Below are positions 3,165 through 25,270 of a DNA stretch of 36,178 nucleotides, one piece after another. This stretch comes from a virus (taxonomy: Duplodnaviria; Heunggongvirae; Uroviricota; Caudoviricetes). The first letter of the stretch is position 1. Each line of letters opens with the position of its first letter. The translations under genes and the position numbers were made by a program. Below the pieces are notes generated by a model. The model did no database searches. It was not told the origin of the DNA and saw nothing but the letters and a program-made list of their open reading frames with translations. The stretch lies in IMG/VR virus record IMGVR_UViG_2695420793_000017. One strand, 5' to 3'.

Positions 3165-4265
3165 TCATTCCATTTCGAAATCATCAATCCTCACTTCAAG
3201 CTCCAGACTGGTCGTAAAACCGTTATCCGGGCTGACGGTATGCGTCAGAGTCGTAATGGTCCATTCCGCATCATCTATCGGCTGTTTAAAGCCACTGACT
3301 TTCACTGGCATTTCCGTGTAGAGATCTGCCCGCCCTTCCGCCAGTTGTAGCGAGAATGACGCAACGCCGCGTTGCAGGCGTTCCCACTGCATTTTCGCTG
3401 CCCGTTCGGCGTTACTCCGATTAGCATAGGTGCGATTAAGTACCAGCACGTTTTCATCCGTACCCACCAGGTAATCGCCCTGCTTCGCTTCCGGCTCTTT
3501 CTTCTGCTTCTTAGTCCTGCGCTTACGCTTCACCGCGGTGCTTTCTTTCTTCGCGGGTTCGCGGGTATGCAACCAGCTGGCAATTACGCCCGTGTAAGCT
3601 CCGCGATCTGCCAGGGTAAAGCGGTGACTGTCGCCGTCCTTACGTGTGATAGTGATAACCGGTAGTGGTTTACCACTGGCGCTTTTACCCTGCCCCTGTC
3701 GGATGAATAACAGATTGCCATTTTTCACCGACGCAATAGCACCGTACTGGCGCGCCAGCCGCATCAGAAAACTGCCGTCACTCTCATTGGTCTGGTCTAT
3801 ATGTTCCACGGGTTTATCTGACAGGTCTTTACCCAATGCCATCTTCAGTTTGTGCCGCGCAGCTATTTCCTTCACCACTTCCCCAACGGTGGTCTTGTGC
3901 CACGACTTTTCACGGCGGGTATTCAGTGTTTCACGAAAATCAGCACTTCGCGCCCGGATAGTCAGGCGATCCGGTGCGCCAGTGTGTTCAATCTCGTCCA
4001 CCGTGAATGCCCCTTTCGGGAAAAGCAGCTGCCCCTTCCAGCCCAGCGCCAGCGTAATGACCGCACCACGGCGCGGCAGCACGATTTTTCCATCGGCGTC
4101 GTCCAGTTCCAGATCAAGCTGGTCCGCTTCAAAGCCCCGGTTATCCGTCAGCGTAAGCCCCATCAGGCGGTTGTCCAGCACAGTAGTGATATCCCTGCCT
4201 TCAATACTGATGCTGAATGCCGGAGTTTTGTTGCCTTTGTTAAGCAGTTCAGAGCTGAAATTCAC
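3165..4265 (-). CDS. D: tail protein D (late control D)
   Basis: 366-aa ORF at the P2 gpD position; translation resembles the gpD family. Confidence 0.8.
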   Translation of the reverse strand: MNFSSELLNKGNKTPAFSISIEGRDITTVLDNRLMGLTLTDNRGFEADQLDLELDDADGKIVLPRRGAVITLALGWKGQLLFPKGAFTVDEIEHTGAPDRLTIRARSADFRETLNTRREKSWHKTTVGEVVKEIAARHKLKMALGKDLSDKPVEHIDQTNESDGSFLMRLARQYGAIASVKNGNLLFIRQGQGKSASGKPLPVITITRKDGDSHRFTLADRGAYTGVIASWLHTREPAKKESTAVKRKRRTKKQKKEPEAKQGDYLVGTDENVLVLNRTYANRSNAERAAKMQWERLQRGVASFSLQLAEGRADLYTEMPVKVSGFKQPIDDAEWTITTLTHTVSPDNGFTTSLELEVRIDDFEME

Positions 4266-4747
4266 GACAGCAGCCCTCCCACCGTTTTACTGATATCGCT
4301 TAAGGCAGACGTTGCCGTGTCCTGCAGATTATTCAGTTGAGTACTGAGATCACCGAACATATCGGACAGGGATTCATCCACCCGTTTTAGCGAAAGGGTG
4401 AACTCAATCCTGCGCGGCATACCGTCGCGGAAAAACTCCGTTTTAGTCTGATTCAGTCCCTCAATCACATACATGCCATAAATCGTGCCGCTGCCTTCAA
4501 TCAGGGGCCATGCTTTCCCCTGTTCTGCCATCTGCTCCAGTGCCAGCAACGACAGCCTGCCACCTGTTATCTCCGGCATAAGAACACCGGAAAGCGTCAG
4601 CATGTCGTTGTCCGGTCCCAGAAACTGCGTGGACGGACGTCGGTTTACCCGGCTGTTTGCCGCATGTCGCCAGCTGCGCTGATACTGCAGCTCCTGATAC
4701 GGCACGGTGCGCAGCATAAACACGTACAATCCCAGCACCATCATCAT
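4262..4747 (-). CDS. U: tail protein U
   Basis: 161-aa ORF; start codon overlaps the gpT stop; P2 gpU position and size. Confidence 0.8.
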   Translation of the reverse strand: MMMVLGLYVFMLRTVPYQELQYQRSWRHAANSRVNRRPSTQFLGPDNDMLTLSGVLMPEITGGRLSLLALEQMAEQGKAWPLIEGSGTIYGMYVIEGLNQTKTEFFRDGMPRRIEFTLSLKRVDESLSDMFGDLSTQLNNLQDTATSALSDISKTVGGLLS

Positions 4748-7700
4748 GCGTCGTATCCCCCCTGATCGCTGTAGTTACTCCTGGCTTTTGCCTTCAGCCT
4801 GCGTTCACGTTCATCAAGCTGGCGGGCCACCTCCCGCGCAATATCCTGCGCACTTTGTCCTGGCTGCGTCTGGATGATGATCTGCGTCGGTGCCTCAATC
4901 CTGTAAACAGGCGGCACAGTGGCTGCGCGACTCACAATTGCTTCTCCACCTTTCGTGGGAAGTGCCAAAGGGTGCAACGGTGGAAGCTCTGCTGGCGCGG
5001 CAGCAACGCCCATCATTCCGGCAACAACGGCAGCCAGTGCAGCTGTATTTCTCCGGCTGGTCACATTTGCCGGGCCGTTAACAATTTCCGGCCCGTTTTC
5101 ACCGACGATGCCAAACTGCCCGCGCGGGATATACCCGCCGCTGTCATACATCCCCGCAAAGCCATATCCCCATGATGGAAAACCACCCGATGGCATCATC
5201 ACTTTACCGTCTGCATTCACCGTCGCAGGTTGCTGACGCGTCACGCTTTCCGGCAGTTTTGCCTTTGCGGCCTCTTTACTGACAATGCCGAGTTTATCCA
5301 GCAACCAGGAAACGCCGGATTTCAGGGAGTCCAGCGGATGCATGACCATATTCAGCCCTTCCGCCAGTGCCTCCCCGAATCGCCGCCCCATTGCCGCTGC
5401 ACTCTGCAGTTCGGCAGAGGTCGACTTAACGGGCGTCAGCAGATCAGTAAACCAGCCCCACAGCGCCTGTACTTTGTCGCCAATCCACTGAAACACAGGC
5501 TTAAGTGGTTCGAATGCAGCACTGATGGGAGCTGCCGCCGCTTTGAATCCTTCAACCACGCCACCGAGAAATGCGGTGATGGGTTGCCAGTATTTCCAGA
5601 CAACCAGCGCCACGCCCGCCAGTGCAGTAACCACAAGACCTATCGGACTGAGCAGAGCACCTAACAGACCAGATATGGCATACAGGGCAACGCGCAGCAT
5701 CGCCAGCGGACCAGATGCAAGCACACGAAGCACCGCGCCTGCGGCAGCCAGTCCACCGCGCAGTACCGCCAGAGGATTCATAAACATCACAGCAACAGCA
5801 CGTAAAGCGGATAATCCAGACCGCAATAGTGCAACCGGCGCACCTGCTACAGTTTTCAGGACATTTCCCGTCAGTGATGCCGTACGGCGCAAAGACGACA
5901 ACGGCGCAGTAAGTAAACCCGCTGCGTTACCCGATGAAGCAAGCCCGCGTCGCAGCACTGCCAGTGGAGCGCCAGCCAGCCAGGACAACGCGCTGCTGGT
6001 TCGTGTTACTGCTGCCGTAACGGAAGGTAACGTTTTGATGCCCAGCACAGAGAATCCCAGACGGATGACTGCCAGCGGCCCCAGCACTGCAGCCAGCGCC
6101 ACAGCCAAGATGCCGAGGCCTACGGTAACCGCAGCCACAATAGCGGCTACTTTCATCAGTGTGCCCGTCAGTTCCGGGTTAGCTTCCACCCAGCGACGCA
6201 ACGCCCCCGTGACGCTTTTCACCGTGTACAGAATATCCATCAGCGGCTGGCGCAGCGTTTCGCCCAGGCTGCTGAAGGTGTTCTGCGCTCCGGTTTTGAC
6301 CAGCAACCACTGAGCAGAAAGTGAATCCTTGTTAATGTCGGATTCTTTCTGCATGGAGCCGAGCGCATCATTGCCCGCTGTCAGTTTTAACTGACGCTGC
6401 AGTTCCGGCAGGTTGTTTGCCAGTTTCGCCGCGTCATCGCCAAACTCTTTACCAAACAACATAGTCATGGCAGACAGGCGCTTGTCCTGCGGCAGCGCGT
6501 TTACCTTCTCCAGCACGCGCTGGATGGTTCCCATCGCATCCTTCGTCATCTGCTTTTCAATCACTTCAGGATTGAGTTTCAGCAGATTCATCCCTTCAAA
6601 GAAACTCTTGCTTTGCATGGTGGCAATGGACAATTCACGCACCATCGCGTTTGCTGCACTGGCTGCAACCTCCGGCGCAGCACCCAGAGTCAGGAAGGTG
6701 GAACCCAGCGCCGCCGCTTTACGATAATCGAGACGGTCAGCCACACCGCCCAGACGTTGCATCACATCGATGATGTCTGCCCCTTTCGACATTGCGTTAT
6801 CATCCAGATAGTTCAGCGCATCACCGAGCTGTTCAATATTGCGGGTAGGTATTTTGTAGAGCTGGGCGATTTTCCCCAGACTTTCTGACAGTTCATCCGC
6901 TGGCAGCTCAAAGGCTGTTGCCGCCTTCGCCGCCGTACTGGCGAAGGCCAGCAGGTCACGTTTCTGGTCTTCCCAGCTGTCGTCAGGATTTGCGACGTTC
7001 ATGCGCGCACCACCTTCAACCAGTGCAGCGAAGTCCACCGCACCGTTTTCCATCGGCAACTGTTCGCTGGCAGCTTTGATGGCATCCTGCATTTCATAAA
7101 AACGTGCAGTGCGGTTGCCATTATCGTCACGCAGACCATTGACCTGCTTTGCCACACCTTTCATGGCATCTTCCATGCTGGTATAGCTTTTTACTGCCGC
7201 CATCACTGGCGTCCCCATTGCCAGCCCTGCAGCCGTGGTGGTGGCTCCGGCTCCTGCGATGCGATCGCGCACCTCCAGCGAACGGGCATAACTGGCACGC
7301 GCTGCATTCATCCTGCGCTGAGCTTCCCCCAGTCGCTTCAGCCGCGCCTCCTGTTTCGACAGTTCCTGGTTATAACGTGATGTTTCACGGGCTAAACGGG
7401 CAGTTGCTCCCGCATCGTCTTTCGCAGAAATTCCCGCCCGGTACAGTTCAGCACGCACAAGCGCCGTCTGCTGCTGCAGCTTTTTCTGGCGTTCTTCCAG
7501 GCGCTGAACAGCCAGCCGTTGACGGCCCAGAGCAACAACCTGACGTTGCGAAGGCGGCCCCATCGCTCCCAGTTCCTGACTGAGCAAATTTGCACGCTGG
7601 CGGGCATAGTTCAGCCTGTCGCCTAATTTCTGATTTTCTGCCTGCAGCTTTCGGAAGCTGTCCAGACTGCTCCCGGCCTGATCAAGCTGCTTTATTGCAT

Positions 7701-7821
7701 CGCGGGATTTTTTGACAGCAGCAGCCAGTTCTCTTGAACTGGCCTGCGCAGATCGAAATGGGCGGGTGAGCTTGTCAACCGCATTAAGAATGACCTGCAG
7801 ACGCAGGTTGTTATCACTCAT
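4744..7821 (-). CDS. T: tail tape measure protein T
   Basis: 1025-aa Ala/Leu-rich ORF with a coiled-coil N-terminus, immediately downstream of E/E'. Confidence 0.85.
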   Translation of the reverse strand: MSDNNLRLQVILNAVDKLTRPFRSAQASSRELAAAVKKSRDAIKQLDQAGSSLDSFRKLQAENQKLGDRLNYARQRANLLSQELGAMGPPSQRQVVALGRQRLAVQRLEERQKKLQQQTALVRAELYRAGISAKDDAGATARLARETSRYNQELSKQEARLKRLGEAQRRMNAARASYARSLEVRDRIAGAGATTTAAGLAMGTPVMAAVKSYTSMEDAMKGVAKQVNGLRDDNGNRTARFYEMQDAIKAASEQLPMENGAVDFAALVEGGARMNVANPDDSWEDQKRDLLAFASTAAKAATAFELPADELSESLGKIAQLYKIPTRNIEQLGDALNYLDDNAMSKGADIIDVMQRLGGVADRLDYRKAAALGSTFLTLGAAPEVAASAANAMVRELSIATMQSKSFFEGMNLLKLNPEVIEKQMTKDAMGTIQRVLEKVNALPQDKRLSAMTMLFGKEFGDDAAKLANNLPELQRQLKLTAGNDALGSMQKESDINKDSLSAQWLLVKTGAQNTFSSLGETLRQPLMDILYTVKSVTGALRRWVEANPELTGTLMKVAAIVAAVTVGLGILAVALAAVLGPLAVIRLGFSVLGIKTLPSVTAAVTRTSSALSWLAGAPLAVLRRGLASSGNAAGLLTAPLSSLRRTASLTGNVLKTVAGAPVALLRSGLSALRAVAVMFMNPLAVLRGGLAAAGAVLRVLASGPLAMLRVALYAISGLLGALLSPIGLVVTALAGVALVVWKYWQPITAFLGGVVEGFKAAAAPISAAFEPLKPVFQWIGDKVQALWGWFTDLLTPVKSTSAELQSAAAMGRRFGEALAEGLNMVMHPLDSLKSGVSWLLDKLGIVSKEAAKAKLPESVTRQQPATVNADGKVMMPSGGFPSWGYGFAGMYDSGGYIPRGQFGIVGENGPEIVNGPANVTSRRNTAALAAVVAGMMGVAAAPAELPPLHPLALPTKGGEAIVSRAATVPPVYRIEAPTQIIIQTQPGQSAQDIAREVARQLDERERRLKAKARSNYSDQGGYDA

Positions 7822-8250
7822 CGTTGGCCCCGCTTCTCTGAATCGCTTTATACCGCCATTCCAGCACTTCGGTCAGCGGCATAACGTCAGTAACGGATGG
7901 CGGCCAGTGAAAAATGGTGGCGATATCTGCCACCAGATCGTCAACCGTCAGGCTGTCGGTAAACCGGCAAGCACCGACTTCTTCAACAAAAAAGTGACAA
8001 CCTCAACCGACATGGCAGTGAGATCTGCCGGGTCCATCTCTGCAATTTCCTGTGCAGTCAGTGCCGGGCTGGAGATGCGGGGGATCACGGTCATCATCGC
8101 GTTCACATCCATATCCATAATCGCCTGCAGGCGTGTACCGCGCAGCGCACCGGAATGCGGTTTGCGCAGCACAATTTCGGTGATTTCTGTTTTACCACGC
8201 TTGATAGGGGTATCCAGTTGAATGGTCTTTTCAGTCTGCTTATCGCTCAT
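7814..8250 (-). CDS. tail assembly chaperone E+E', predicted -1 frameshift product (about 145 aa)
   Basis: heptamer T_TTT_TTG at 7993-7987 (minus strand) in the E frame; the -1 frame stays open for 57 codons to a TGA at 7816-7814 that overlaps the gpT ATG. Confidence 0.7.
7948..8250 (-). CDS. E: tail assembly chaperone E
   Basis: 100-aa ORF between FII and T; contains the T_TTT_TTG slippery heptamer near its 3' end. Confidence 0.8.
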   Translation of the reverse strand: MSDKQTEKTIQLDTPIKRGKTEITEIVLRKPHSGALRGTRLQAIMDMDVNAMMTVIPRISSPALTAQEIAEMDPADLTAMSVEVVTFLLKKSVLAGLPTA

Positions 8251-8829: not shown

Positions 8830-10002
8830 TTACGCGCTGACCTGGCTGGCAAAATTCACCAGGTACTGATCGGTGATGCGCTGACGCAGCATCAGGTTTT
8901 CAAGTGGCGGCACTGGCGTGTAGTCGTAGTCAATGGTGAGCTTCCCGGCTTTCAGCGTGTCTTTATCGTTCACCGACTCATCCAGCCAGCAATCACCACC
9001 AATGAGATACCCCTGACTGACCAGGCTGCGCATTTTGGCGCGGATACCTTCGATAATGTCGCGGGCCAGCGACGGGTTCAGCGGTTTGTCCACTGCCCAC
9101 ATGTGCGCTTCTGCCATTGTGTCCGTCAGCACCTGCGCCGTGCGGGTGTAGTTTTCGAAGGCAAAGAGCGGGTCATCACTCAGGCAGCGGGAACCCCAGA
9201 AGCGGAAACCGTCTTTACGCACAAGCGTGGTGACGTCGTTCTGGTTCAGCAGACCTGCATCGGTTGCCGGGTCCTGCAGATCCCAGAACACATCTGCAGA
9301 AATTCCGGTGACACCGTTCACGCCCACGTTGGACAGGCTTTTGTGCCATCCGGTCTGCTCATCAATTTTGGCACGCAGACCAAGCGCACGGGCGGTGGCA
9401 TATGCCGTTGCTTCGGCATTCAGCACCGTGTCCCAGCCAGTAAAGTCGGGCCAGATCAGCATTCCTTCGCGCTGGCTGAAGTTTTCACGGTAAGTGATCG
9501 CCTCCTGCACCGTCTTGCAGCCATACGCTGACAGGTAAGCAAACCCACGCAGGCTTTGCGCCACACTCAGCAACTCAGTAGCAACGGCTTTGTTATCGTG
9601 ACCTGGCACGCCGAGAATGCGCGGTTTAACGCCGAGCTGTGTCTGGGCAGATAACAGGGCTTTCATGCCTGTTTTTTTACCTTCAGCAGTCACTGCGCCG
9701 ATGATATTGGTCGTGGTTTCTTCTTCCGTTTCACCCTGCGGCACACGCACAACAACGGTCACGGGTTTTGCCTGGTCAGCGATGGCATCCAGCGAACGGG
9801 CCAGCGTGCCGGACTCACCCGCTTTACCGCTGGCAGTCAGCACATCAGTGATCAGCACGGGTTTATTAAGAGGAAACATTTTTGCATCGGCATCATCGCC
9901 CGTGCAGACCATACCCACGATGGCGGTGCTCACCGTGGTAATGGATCGGGTGCCTTCGTTAACTTCAACAACGCGCACCCCGTGGTGGTAATCCTGAGCC
10001 AT
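8830..10002 (-). CDS. FI: tail sheath protein FI
   Basis: 390-aa ORF; AGGAGG 8 nt upstream of the ATG; gpFI family. Confidence 0.85.
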
Positions 10003-10078: not shown

Positions 10079-10096
10079 TGTACCGTTATTCACACA
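10079..10096 (-). promoter_or_regulatory. putative Ogr-dependent late promoter element (TGT-N12-ACA dyad) upstream of FI
   Basis: TGTaccgttattcacACA, centred about 85 nt upstream of the FI ATG; P2 late promoters carry this dyad (recalled). Confidence 0.5.
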
Positions 10097-10136
10097 AAAT
10101 AACGGTATTTGTCCGCTTGCAGGAAAAATCTCTGCA

Positions 10137-10162
10137 TTTTTATAAACGTTGGTTTAGGAGAT
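10137..10162. promoter_or_regulatory. putative serine-invertase crossover site (gix/hix-like), left
   Basis: TTTTTATAAACG-TT-GGTTTAGGAGAT resembles the hix/gix 12-2-12 sites as recalled; its reverse complement shares a 10/12 half-site and the core with 11683-11708. Confidence 0.45.
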
Positions 10163-10515
10163 GCGGCAAAAAAAATGTTGGCACTGGTTCCGGACAGATT
10201 CCGGACATGTCTTCATTTGGTAATCAGCGAGCCGATTCGGGGTATCAATACCTGCCAGGCGGGTTAATTCTTCAATGGGCAATAGCCAAAACGAAAACAT
10301 CCCCAGAAACAGTATCATTCCCGATTGCGTTTCCAACCAGGGCGCTATGTGTTGTTGCAACAGACCAGAGTGTTGGGGGTACAGGTCAAGGTTTTGCGTT
10401 AACCGCCCAGAATTTTACGAGAACTAATTTCCAGCTACGCGCTTATCAGACAGGAACCAACGCTGAATCATCCATCGGCGCTGGCGGGTTTAACTATTTT
10501 GCTGTGGGGTATTAA
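10151..10515 (+). pseudogene. alternative tail-fibre C-terminal cassette, silent in this orientation and out of frame at an A8 tract
   Basis: the frame ending ...PGGLILQW...FPIAFP...FAVGY is homologous to the C-terminus of H; it has no in-frame 5' continuation unless a -1 shift occurs at A8 (10168-10175). Confidence 0.55.
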
Positions 10516-10518
10516 TAA

Positions 10519-10950
10519 ATGGCTTATTTTTATTCAGCATTAAATAACGCTTTCTACCCTGATGAGCTCAGAGATGTTTATGAAGCGAGTAGAAACTGGC
10601 CTGACGATCTCATAGCCGTCTCAGATGAGACATTCACTGAATATTCGGGGATGCCACCAGAGGGTAAAACTCGTGGAGCTACTGAGGATGGAATGCCGGC
10701 ATGGGTAGACATTCCACCTTTAAGCCATGAGGAGGAAATCGCAGCAGCTGAAGCTGAAAAACAGTATCGTATCGATCAGGCTAATGAGTATATAAACAGC
10801 AAGCAGTGGCCGGGTAAAGCTGCGCTGGGGCGACTTACAGACGACGAGAAGGCCCAGTATAACGAGTGGCTGGATTATCTCGATGCGCTGGAATCTGTGG
10901 ACATATCCAGCGCACCAGATATCAACTGGCCTGAGTCGCCGGAGGAGTAG
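10519..10950 (+). CDS. tail fibre assembly protein, alternative copy (tfa')
   Basis: 143-aa ORF homologous to the minus-strand tfa (shared ...AFY.DEL..., ...WPDD..., ...ALAEAEK... patterns); convergent with and overlapping it at 10922-10950. Confidence 0.7.
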
Positions 10951-11353
10951 GCCAGTCCGGGTCTGCTGTATCAACTCGCATCAGCAGCACCCGGTATTTT
11001 TTCCATTCGGCTAATGAAACAGTTTCTTCTTCCGTCGCGATCCCCGCATCAACGGCGTCCTGCCGCCATTCTATTTCAGAGTCAGCTGAAGCACGCAGTC
11101 GCGATTTTTCGGCTTCTGCCAACGCAATAATTTCCTCTTCAGTTGGTTCGGGAATATCTATCCATTCAGGTAAACCATCAGAATTAGGAGCGCGTAATTT
11201 TCCGTTAGGTGATTCTCCGGCAAACTCAACGAATACGGAATAGTCTACTTCAACGGCATCGTCAGGCCAGCTACCTGCATTTTCATAAATACTTTTTAGC
11301 TCATCAGCGTAGAACGCATTTTCTTTTGCAGAATAAAACATATTAATCACCAT
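10922..11353 (-). CDS. tail fibre assembly protein (gpG-like)
   Basis: 143-aa ORF immediately downstream of H; the P2 G position. Confidence 0.8.
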
Positions 11354-12744
11354 CCAATCGCGAAAACTCTAAAGCCACCGTAGCCAGCACATGTAATCTG
11401 AGTTCTTGTTACCGTCGTATAGTATGATCGGCCCACCGCTAAGCTATATGCGGCTGTAGAACTCAAATCAACTGCCCCAGTTGATACATCACTAAATAAC
11501 GGAATCATGCACTCATTTGGGAATGCAATAGGGAAATTCGCAGTTACTGGTGTCACATAATCAGTTGTAGCAGCACCAAACCACTGCAATATGATCACCC
11601 GTTCTTTCCCGGCGACCATTGCCGGGATAGTCATATAGCCTGTAGAGCCGGTCACACACACCGCTGCGCCTAATTTTGCTCCCTCTCCCAAACCAAGGTA
11701 TGCGAGAAGACCAGCTACATCCTTTCCACTCAAATTAGTCAGCGTATTGTCCAGCGGTTGTTTACCTGCCAGCGCATTAAGCATTGTCGTGGCAAAGTTC
11801 GGGTCATTCCCCAGCGCCGCAGCCAGTTCGTTCAGTGTATCCAGTGCAGCAGGTGCAGACCCCACCATTGCCGCAATTGCCGATTTCACAAAAGCCGTGG
11901 TGGCAATCTGTGTATTGTTAACCGACTGTGCGGCAGTGGGGGCTGTTGGCGTTCCGGTGAGTGCCGGACTTGACAGCGACGCTTTCAGTGCCAGCGCATT
12001 GTTAATGGTGGTACTGAATTTCGGGTCATTATTAATGGCAGCGGCAATTTCTTTCAGCGTATCCAGTGTGGCTGGCGCACCATTAATAAGGGCCATCAGT
12101 GCCGCCTGAACAAACGCGGTGGTCGCAATCTGCGTGGTGTTATTCCCCTCCGCTGGCGTTGGCGCTTTGGGTGTTCCGGTCAATGTCGGGCTTTCTTTGG
12201 GTGCATACTGTGAATGCGGGTCCGGTGCGGCAAGATGTTTTGCCATCTTATCATCCACGAACACCTTCAGCTCCAGTACCTTGTCATCCACATACTTGCG
12301 GGTTGCCAGCACGACGGCAGGGTCGATTTTCAGGGTGATATTGTCCGTGCTGCTGGTAATCAGCACCATGCGCACGGTCTGGGTGCGCCCGCTGCCTTCA
12401 GCCAGTTGCGGCTTATAGCTTTCCGGGCAGTTGCCTACGGCAATCAATGCCCCGGACTCATCAAACAGACCCACTTCACGTATCCACCAACCACCCTCAT
12501 TTTCAGGGATCACCTGTTCAGCAATAATCTGGCTGCTGTTCTGTGGGTCGATATAGAGCATATTCAGCGCAGCCCGACGTTTCTCATTTACCAGTGCACT
12601 CTGCTTTGCGTCCGGCGTCGGCAATGTTCCGCCACCATCGCCCACCGCCATATGGGTAATTTTTAGCGGCACACCGAGCGCGGCGGCGCTGGCAAGTTTC
12701 GCCGCGCCAATATCCGTCAGCAGGGTATAAAATTTTGTGCTCAT
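11347..12744 (-). CDS. H: tail fibre protein H
   Basis: 465-aa ORF with a conserved N-terminus, internal repeats and a variable C-terminus; start overlaps the gpI stop. Confidence 0.85.
11683..11708. promoter_or_regulatory. putative serine-invertase crossover site (gix/hix-like), right, inside H
   Basis: CTCTCCCAAACC-AA-GGTATGCGAGAA; lies in the H codons for AYLGLGEG at the constant/variable junction. Confidence 0.45.
11755..12192. repeat. tandem duplication of about 219 bp (about 73 aa) inside H
   Basis: two protein modules ...LTGTP.APT...[11 protein letters not shown]...APA.LDTL.E.AAA..NDP.F.TT..NALA.K in tandem (H residues about 185-257 and 258-330); boundaries approximate. Confidence 0.6.
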
Positions 12745-24019: not shown

Positions 24020-25270
24020 TTATCGCCATTTTAGATAAAAAGCAAAAAATGGATCAGTAATATGCAACTTTCGGTCCTCCTTATCCCAATCTATTACAGG
24101 AGTTGAAGCTTCTTCCGTAGCAGCTATTTTAGCCATTTTTTCTATAACACGAGTAACCTCATGAGCTTGTGGAGGAGCATCTTGCACCAGTTCGCGTATG
24201 GCTGATCTTAACTCCTCATACTGAATACTTTGCATTCCTGGTTTCATATGTGACAATGCATATAATACAACTTTATATATATCTACTTCCTCACCACTTT
24301 TCAGTTTTCTAGGAATTCTGTCAGTTCGCTGATTAGGGCCACTAGCTAACTTATCAAATACTATTTTCCCAGTGGATTCTGCAACCTTTCTAAAAATATC
24401 ATCATCTAAAGAATTAATAACTAACTTACTCGGCAAAGTTTCTTTAACATTATTTACTAAGCATATAGCCTTGCAAAACTCTTGCATTAAATGAGGGCTT
24501 CCCAATGATTCATTGGCAATTTTATCAATTACTGAATCACTAACTTCCATGTTTAACAGAGGAAATCCCACTTTTGCTATTTGTTTTAGTTCATCCATTT
24601 CCCACGAAGGCATGGAAATATTTTCTAGCCGTCCGGTAATTTCTTTTTCAACTTTTACAGCATCATATCTTCGATGTGGAATGGCTATCAGTACAACTGG
24701 TACTCCATCAAAAACTAATGGTTTTATCGCTCTAATAAAGTTACCTTGTAGGTCACGATCAAGGTAATGAAAGTCATCAATTATAAGACTAGACTTGGTT
24801 TGAGAGAGAACTTTTAGTGCAGAACTTTTTGCGGATATCGTTCGCGATTTTTTATTACCATTTGACTTTCCATCCGTCTGAACTAAACCAGCCTCACCTG
24901 TACCTTTAACAACGAATGCACTTGCGGTCCCCGATACCTTACCACTAACTGCAATAGCACTATTTTCTCCAGAATTAACTTCAATACTATGGTAGCCATT
25001 TAGTTTTTCTAATACCTGCTCCCAAATATCATCTTCAGTTGTAATACTCCCACCGTCAATCCATACAACATCATCGTCCATAACTGGGAATACCATTCTT
25101 GTAATTACAGTCTTACCAGACTTTGTTTGCCCAGTTAAAGTCACTAACTTACATAAATTATCTTTAGCACTCTCCAGTTTTCCATGAACCTCTCCTTCAG
25201 AGCGCTCAACATAAGTCAATTTCGGCATACCGCCAGGCACAAAAACTTGTGAAGCACGTTGTTTATCCAT
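24020..25270 (-). CDS. P-loop NTPase of unknown function (accessory gene, candidate anti-phage defence)
   Basis: 416-aa ORF; Walker A GQTKSGKT and Walker B-like LIIDDFHYLDRD; visibly AT-rich versus neighbours; lies between cos and Q. Confidence 0.8.
   Translation of the reverse strand: MDKQRASQVFVPGGMPKLTYVERSEGEVHGKLESAKDNLCKLVTLTGQTKSGKTVITRMVFPVMDDDVVWIDGGSITTEDDIWEQVLEKLNGYHSIEVNSGENSAIAVSGKVSGTASAFVVKGTGEAGLVQTDGKSNGNKKSRTISAKSSALKVLSQTKSSLIIDDFHYLDRDLQGNFIRAIKPLVFDGVPVVLIAIPHRRYDAVKVEKEITGRLENISMPSWEMDELKQIAKVGFPLLNMEVSDSVIDKIANESLGSPHLMQEFCKAICLVNNVKETLPSKLVINSLDDDIFRKVAESTGKIVFDKLASGPNQRTDRIPRKLKSGEEVDIYKVVLYALSHMKPGMQSIQYEELRSAIRELVQDAPPQAHEVTRVIEKMAKIAATEEASTPVIDWDKEDRKLHITDPFFAFYLKWR

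Follow-up and report, generated by a model that had tools for sequence, protein, structure and literature searches.

Why does a P2-like prophage with an intact tail-fibre gene H carry, on the opposite strand, a second fibre C-terminus that inversion of the intervening DNA could join to H, and why does that second C-terminus lie one base out of frame at a run of eight adenines? The window studied here is the whole stretch of 36,178 nucleotides, and a first-pass annotation of it, made from the letters alone, had left three answers side by side, namely a sequencing or mutational error in the homopolymer, a decayed cassette, or a slippage-dependent (phase-variable or programmed) way of making the alternative fibre. 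All the elements which that annotation described are present in the sequence where it had placed them, the A8 run at 10168-10175 among them. Here, we argue that the locus is most probably (at about 0.8) a case of ordinary prophage decay, in which a fossil inversion switch and a frameshifted orphan exon have been left behind, the latter by the loss of one base from a hypermutable A9 run. Among the three earlier answers, mutational error and a decayed cassette are upheld by the A9 found in intact fibres, by the deletion of the invertase and by one relative (L033) that carries this deletion with an A9; sequencing error is rejected, and slippage-dependent expression is not supported.

Two fibre tips in mirror arrangement

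The window is identical to E. coli Ecol_224 (NZ_CP018948.1, 3366989-3403166) and contains a complete P2-like prophage of E. coli flanked by ybjL and rcdA. On the minus strand the baseplate genes V, W, J and I are followed by the fibre gene H and an assembly chaperone, and these are mirrored on the plus strand by a second chaperone and a promoterless fibre C-terminus, with the sheath gene FI coming directly after. The genes of the locus are as follows.

8830..10002, minus strand: tail sheath gene FI, the far border of the locus, on the side usually occupied by the invertase
10151..10515, plus strand: orphan alternative H C-terminal cassette (Sv'-like), with a Pfam Gp53-like_C domain and in-frame fibre fusions in relatives
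10519..10950, plus strand: tail-fibre assembly chaperone (U'-like), intact, which pairs with the alternative cassette; Pfam Caudo_TAP, E 1.9e-38
10922..11353, minus strand: G/U-like tail-fibre assembly chaperone that serves the resident tip of H; Pfam Caudo_TAP, E 1e-33
11347..12744, minus strand: tail-fibre gene H, 465 aa, intact; Pfam Phage_tail_fib and Gp53-like_C

The resident variable tip of H is the part downstream of a crossover site that lies within the gene, and the exact 465-aa protein occurs on 21 contigs; the U'-like chaperone is likewise found as an identical protein, in 457 collection blocks. The segment thus holds a pair of Gp53-like_C tips, each with a Caudo_TAP gene, as mirror images of one another, the layout expected of a Din-family invertible segment.

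Within the alternative cassette, positions 10151-10175 are in the frame that H would enter, and 10177-10515 (stop codon 10513-10515) are in the -1 frame. The translation of this second part matches Pfam Gp53-like_C (E 5.4e-19) and aligns with the C-terminus of the resident H at 32% identity (E 8e-12), in keeping with the earlier proposal that it is the -1 frame which is homologous to the resident tip. The RefSeq/PGAP annotation of 10117-10515 (plus strand) gives an intact 132-aa 'gp53-like domain-containing protein' (WP_165843458.1) that begins at a TTG in the wrong frame; this start is spurious, and what is annotated as an intact gene is really a frameshifted orphan exon of H.

Crossover sites and the effect of inversion

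The segment is bounded by an inverted repeat of 26 nt (10146-10171 and 11674-11699; 81% complementary) that contains an AAACC-NN-GGTTT dyad, which is typical of Gin, Hin, Cin and Pin sites. Two crossover sites are recognized.

10137..10162, no strand: sheath-proximal Din-type crossover site, core TT at 10149-10150, placed by the inverted repeat, homology breakpoints and contig ends
11683..11708, no strand: crossover site inside gene H, core AA at 11695-11696, encoding ...AYLGLG

The cores are also fixed independently of the repeat, in that homology to relatives whose segment has different flanks begins and stops exactly at them, and contigs of collapsed repeats start at TT and end at AA or at AA followed by GGT. 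In this respect the window agrees with the Din family, whose paired crossover sites are inverted, ~26 bp long and built around a 2-bp core.

Inversion of the segment in silico at these cores yields an H of 388 aa that reads ...AYLGLGDAAKK and runs on for 30 codons, just as the first-pass annotation had predicted, to the following stop.

10265..10267, plus strand: stop codon at which H, with the segment inverted, would terminate 30 codons past the A-run (ORF 10109-10267; in-silico inversion)

The predicted arrangement exists in nature. In relative L025 (GCA_026220995.1; 1583-2749 and ~4246-4820) the segment is turned so that H reads into the A8 cassette, and H stops at 388 aa with precisely the tail foreseen for it; the invertase of this genome has itself suffered a 1-nt deletion, which shifts the frame at codon 8-9, immediately ahead of the catalytic serine. 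This example was found at the DNA level only, the H gene not being called there, and a protein search for ...GLGDAAKKMLALVPDRF fused to H returned no match.

For the lineage of the window itself, the five complete genomes all have the segment in one and the same orientation, so that the two orientations expected of a working Din-family segment are not seen among them, and none of the flipped-state products predicted for this lineage occurs in a collection of 15 billion proteins. Relatives that bear an invertase show both orientations (L019 against L028, and L031 against L034). Stand-alone contigs of 1548 or 1551 bp (L009-L013), whose ends coincide with the crossover cores, were considered as proof of active inversion, a reading rejected for L011-L013. 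Genomes of the GCA_052874175.1 type carry two near-identical A8 segments in two prophages, whose flanks diverge right before TT and have only GGT in common after AA, which are precisely the ends of the L011-L013 contigs; these 1551-bp contigs are collapsed copies from strains with the segment in two prophages. The collapse explanation covers L011-L013, the contigs of L009 and L010 ending exactly at AA.

An in-frame A9 as the functional state of the cassette

The frame of the alternative tip depends on a single homopolymer.

10168..10175, plus strand: A8 homopolymer at which the frame is lost; its ancestral and functional form, A9, reads GCA AAA AAA AAT (A K K N)

The run lies 19 nt inside the crossover site with core TT at 10149-10150 and is one of only three runs of at least 8 bases in the 36-kb window. 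It had been suggested that an A9 allele would join the two parts of the cassette, and relatives encode exactly this in-frame fusion, the A9 allele reading ...GLGDAAKKNVGTGSGQIPDM... In E. coli 02B21CPO003B and CUWW10 (L002 and L003), the 1.55-kb segment is 99.6% and 97.7% identical to that of the window and lies in the opposite orientation beside a Gin-like invertase; both have A9 and an intact 397-aa H reading ...AYLGLGDAAKKNVGTGSGQIPDM... An A9 is also found in the intact 471-aa H of L028, in the intact 211-aa fibre of an unrelated myovirus-type prophage (L014-L016), in P0005 with its intact fibre, and, as an A9-type junction, in many in-frame fusion proteins of 216-324 aa. Silent A9 copies adjoin invertases in L006, L007, L008, L019 and L043. 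Among the copies examined, every intact fibre that uses the cassette has A9 in frame, which establishes A9 as its functional state.

The run itself is a property of one group of alleles. It is kept as a pure A-run in a cassette allele of 93% identity, is confined to this close group (at least 93% amino acid identity), and is absent at 75% identity and from other cassettes. More distant cassettes make the same junction without any run, using GCA AAA CGG AAT/GAT (P2 from strain T22 and pro483), TCG AAA AGG AAT (E47) or GCA ACG AAG AAC (L039). As the tract occurs only in one allele group and is absent from the distant cassettes, it is a by-product of the codons chosen for K-K-N rather than a conserved device.

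The A8 allele is not an assembly error

If the homopolymer had been miscalled by long-read assembly and were really A9, the cassette would be a plain in-frame gene, and this reading draws on the PacBio RS data from which several of the complete genomes were assembled and on the fact that the one missing base is the only window-specific change in the 1.55-kb segment. The allele is, however, reproduced in genomes that were corrected by other means. Five complete genomes (Ecol_224, MS6192, MS6193, CH468 and NCTC11023) are 100% identical over 1801 nt that include the A8; small indels in the ST101 strains MS6192 and MS6193 had been corrected with Illumina reads and Pilon, and the Ecol_224 assembly had been checked against Illumina reads. 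The same allele recurs in short-contig drafts (L009, L011-L013 and L025), and an A8-type ORF is present on 37 contigs. In NCTC11023, a single assembly resolves A8 in the P2-like prophage and A9 in a second prophage with identical local sequence. A miscall is thus hardly credible, assembly error having been ruled out by the Illumina-corrected assemblies, the 37 contigs and the coexistence of both alleles in one genome, and the A8 is a real mutation. The first-pass annotation had regarded a consistent A9 in related prophages as the sign of an error in assembly; what the relatives show is A9 in some and A8 in others, and therefore a hypermutable tract rather than an artefact.

Loss of the invertase and the order of the two lesions

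No serine invertase adjoins the segment, and no recombinase is present in the window. In relatives with the same backbone (L019, E47, L028 and L043), a 188-aa gene with Resolvase and HTH_7 domains lies between the sheath gene and the cassette, and the related invertase of L002 matches the Mu Gin structures 3UJ3 and 4M6F (E 1e-94). When the window is aligned to L019 (1996-2562), 630 bp are found to be absent between two ATC triplets.

10128..10130, no strand: junction of the 630-bp deletion at ATC microhomology, from alignment to L019 and E47; the junction in L033 is identical

The deletion takes the whole invertase gene together with its promoter-proximal region and leaves the neighbouring 26-bp crossover site untouched. 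The Fis-dependent enhancer of Gin, Hin and Cin systems lies within the 5' part of the invertase gene; because this region is deleted, the enhancer of the window is presumably gone, so that a cis-acting element would have been lost along with the enzyme. The segment of the window prophage has probably ceased to invert, unless an invertase encoded elsewhere in the Ecol_224 genome acts on its intact crossover sites. Other P2-like prophages of E. coli have only a 'helix-turn-helix' remnant annotated at the position of the invertase, which suggests that the invertase has been lost repeatedly.

The order of the two lesions can be read from L033 (GCA_019701985.1), which has the identical deletion junction and the identical cassette haplotype, yet retains A9 and an open ORF of 135 aa. 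This combination indicates that the invertase was lost first and the A afterwards. Nowhere else in the segment does the window have a change of its own, so that the 1-nt deletion is also recent.

From these comparisons the history of the locus may be reconstructed. Gene H would once have formed part of a Gin/Pin-type inversion switch, its 1.55-kb segment between two 26-bp crossover sites supplying two alternative tips, each with its own assembly chaperone. The first lesion, the 630-bp deletion of the invertase gene and, it seems, of the enhancer, would have locked the segment with the resident tip expressed. In the second, replication slippage would have turned the A9 (GCA AAA AAA AAT) into A8 and put the spare tip one base out of frame, so that this tip and its chaperone would now be untranslatable cargo, with the resident 465-aa fibre still being made. 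On several backgrounds in E. coli prophages the A9 run appears to have lost an A in the same manner, as would be expected of a mutational hot spot and not of a designed recoding site.

The arrangement is that of well-known switches. Like the Mu G segment with Gin, the P1 C segment with Cin and the e14 P segment with Pin, the window has a segment flanked by two inverted crossover sites (26 bp each, around a core of 2 bp), a constant part of the fibre outside the segment and two alternative C-terminal cassettes inside it, each accompanied by a chaperone; its relatives also carry a Gin-like serine invertase beside the segment. Unlike these systems, the window has lost its invertase and has a frameshifted spare cassette, so that only the fossil of a switch is left, and the backbone is P2-like with the switch placed between G and FI. 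Invertible tail-fibre loci are known in P2-like prophages of E. coli, such as that of EPEC E2348/69, where inversion was seen experimentally (Goldberg et al. 2014, PMC4272514). These loci belong to the same phage family and share the position and logic of the window's locus, but they are active, whereas the locus in the window is without invertase and known in one orientation only; inversion among the relatives of the window is deduced from opposite orientations in different strains. The window prophage accordingly offers a dated case of decay in an inversion switch, with the invertase going first and the silent cassette then failing at its most mutable site, and its paired chaperone still intact after both lesions.

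Recoding at the A8 run

A different kind of explanation would make the A8 useful, with the alternative tip expressed from it by -1 ribosomal frameshifting on A_AAA_AAA or by an RNA polymerase that slips and adds an A. In favour of this proposal, inversion in silico does place the heptamer gcA AAA AAA in the frame of H, transcription can slip productively on runs of 8-9 A in some bacteria (PMC1088944) and an A11 run rescues tssM1 in Citrobacter (PMC4256274). It is the remainder of the locus that speaks against it. Every intact fibre using the cassette already has its A9 in frame; the out-of-frame arrangement is not conserved, distant cassettes being in frame without a run; and no downstream stimulatory RNA structure was detected when 10176-10260 was folded (z 0.04, with 96 of 200 shuffled sequences folding as well). 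In addition, the cassette cannot be joined to H in the window prophage because the invertase is deleted. The suggestion of programmed or slippage-dependent expression made in the earlier annotation is therefore not sustained, and we regard it as very unlikely, although some low-level rescue of an A8 by transcriptional slippage would be plausible in principle from the published cases (PMC1088944, PMC4256274).

Comparison with individual systems leads to the same point. The poly-A just before a change of frame is reminiscent of genes rescued by transcriptional slippage, such as IS elements with A9, Thermus dnaX and the Citrobacter tssM1 with A11 (PMC1088944, PMC4256274), but the run in the window is shorter (A8) and not conserved, and it is the in-frame A9 that intact genes use. 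The P2 E/E+E' and dnaX-type -1 frameshifts share with the window an X_XXY_YYZ heptamer in phase; unlike them, the A8 site has no stimulatory element and its arrangement is not conserved. The locus thus reveals no new recoding mechanism.

Recurrence of A8 and the possibility of a contingency tract

In some 30 copies of the 1.55-kb segment, no indel is found outside the A-run. At least three cassette haplotypes are known with A8, and each of them with A9 too; the backgrounds on which A8 is found are the haplotype of the window, a haplotype one substitution away (in the JBJWF* assemblies), the cassette of L025, and a second cassette allele in L009 and L010. Because the A8 backgrounds also exist as A9, either recurrent slippage or recombination within a 54-nt interval must be invoked, and the occurrence of A8 on at least three haplotypes marks the A9 run as a recurrent mutational hot spot. 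In a biased sample, A8 was present in eight of the ten places covered.

Attempts at a wider count added little. A pattern scan gave no matches among genome contigs, one in the viral scan and two in the metagenome scan, all of them A9 and too few for a census, and at the DNA level the cassette had no match in the phage collection. A 102-aa ORF that starts at an internal ATG was tried as a marker of A8 and proved unreliable, L033 being A9 with the same gene call.

Decay after the cassette had been stranded does not cover all A8 copies. The JBJWF* genomes, which are long-contig assemblies from one strain set, have A8 in three prophage types beside intact-looking invertases of 186-193 aa, an observation whose weight is limited by the unestablished quality of these assemblies; the A8 segment is found there in both orientations between strains. 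When contexts are tallied, A9 occurs eight times with an invertase and once without, and A8 three times with the invertase missing or broken and three times with one that looks intact. This is a trend only, not significant and drawn from contexts that are not independent, so that an association of A8 with loss of the invertase is not upheld beyond it.

These copies give some room to the idea of a contingency tract, in which reversible slippage between A9 and A8 would act as a heritable on/off switch of the alternative tip, set atop inversion and kept for its usefulness. Length polymorphism on at least three nearly identical haplotypes, the restriction of indels to the run, the presence in the JBJWF* genomes of A8 copies in either orientation beside invertases that look intact, and the persistence of a pure A-run in the 93%-identical allele are all what such a switch would produce. 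As in the contingency loci of Neisseria, Haemophilus and Campylobacter, a coding homopolymer here differs by one unit between close relatives and would turn a surface-recognition protein on or off. Unlike those loci, the tract is absent from the more distant homologous cassettes. Run lengths other than A8 and A9 have not been seen, a pattern to be expected if a hot spot decays in one direction only; several A8 copies belong to switches that are otherwise dead (the deletion of the window and L033 type, the frameshifted invertase of L025 and the L029 type without invertase); and the 'off' state in the expressed orientation is a truncated H and not a useful alternative. We consider a maintained contingency tract improbable, and our confidence in an adaptive on/off role for the run is low, no positive support for it having emerged.

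A narrower form of this idea confines the second switch to prophages that still invert, as those of the JBJWF* type may do, and allows the A8 to be leaky through slippage of RNA polymerase. It too is doubtful. Were it true, host range would be governed by a three-state system (resident tip, alternative tip on, and alternative tip off or leaky), and the exchange of the 1.55-kb segment between unrelated prophages at the crossover sites would spread the switch. Under the preferred reading of decay at a hypermutable run, the A8 copies are presumably selectively neutral. The repeated breakage of an A9 run in a fibre cassette that is so widely shared calls for caution in predicting host range from prophage sequence, and equally when such cassettes are borrowed for engineered phages or tailocins.

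Sharing of the segment between prophages

The 1.55-kb segment (window 10149-11696) is found with 0-35 differences in at least five unrelated prophage backbones (L014-L016 and L021-L038), whose fibres measure 211/228, 243, 278, 389/312, 397 and 465/471 aa. Across these backbones homology breaks exactly at the crossover cores, and some genomes hold two or three almost identical copies. These near-identical segments in unrelated backbones imply that whole segments have been exchanged between prophages or transferred by gene conversion. In one metagenome contig (L016, ENA k141_1968, 5001-7865) the segment common to both links a prophage with the 211-aa fibre to a P2-type H of 465 aa, a junction that is probably a chimeric assembly across the repeat.

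Other features of the window

Three further observations concern parts of the window outside the invertible segment. At 10079-10096, ~85 bp upstream of the start of the sheath gene, there is a TGT-N12-ACA dyad (TGTACCGTTATTCACACA) that belongs to a hairpin-like repeat and has what we take to be the form of the Ogr/Delta-dependent operator of P2 late promoters. On the minus strand at 7987-7993, a T_TTT_TTG heptamer stands in phase in the tail-chaperone gene E, with a GpE-family ORF in the -1 frame; this is the known programmed frameshift of P2 E/E+E', and the site lies between ORFs 7948-8250 and 7814-7933, which are annotated as two separate genes. Finally, a 416-aa 'hypothetical protein' encoded beside the portal gene (24020-25270, minus strand) has a weak AAA_22 match under the Pfam cut-off (26.2 against 27 bits) and matches PDC-S59, a candidate defence family in PADLOC (E 2.4e-31); in P2-like phages, anti-phage cargo is often found at this place.
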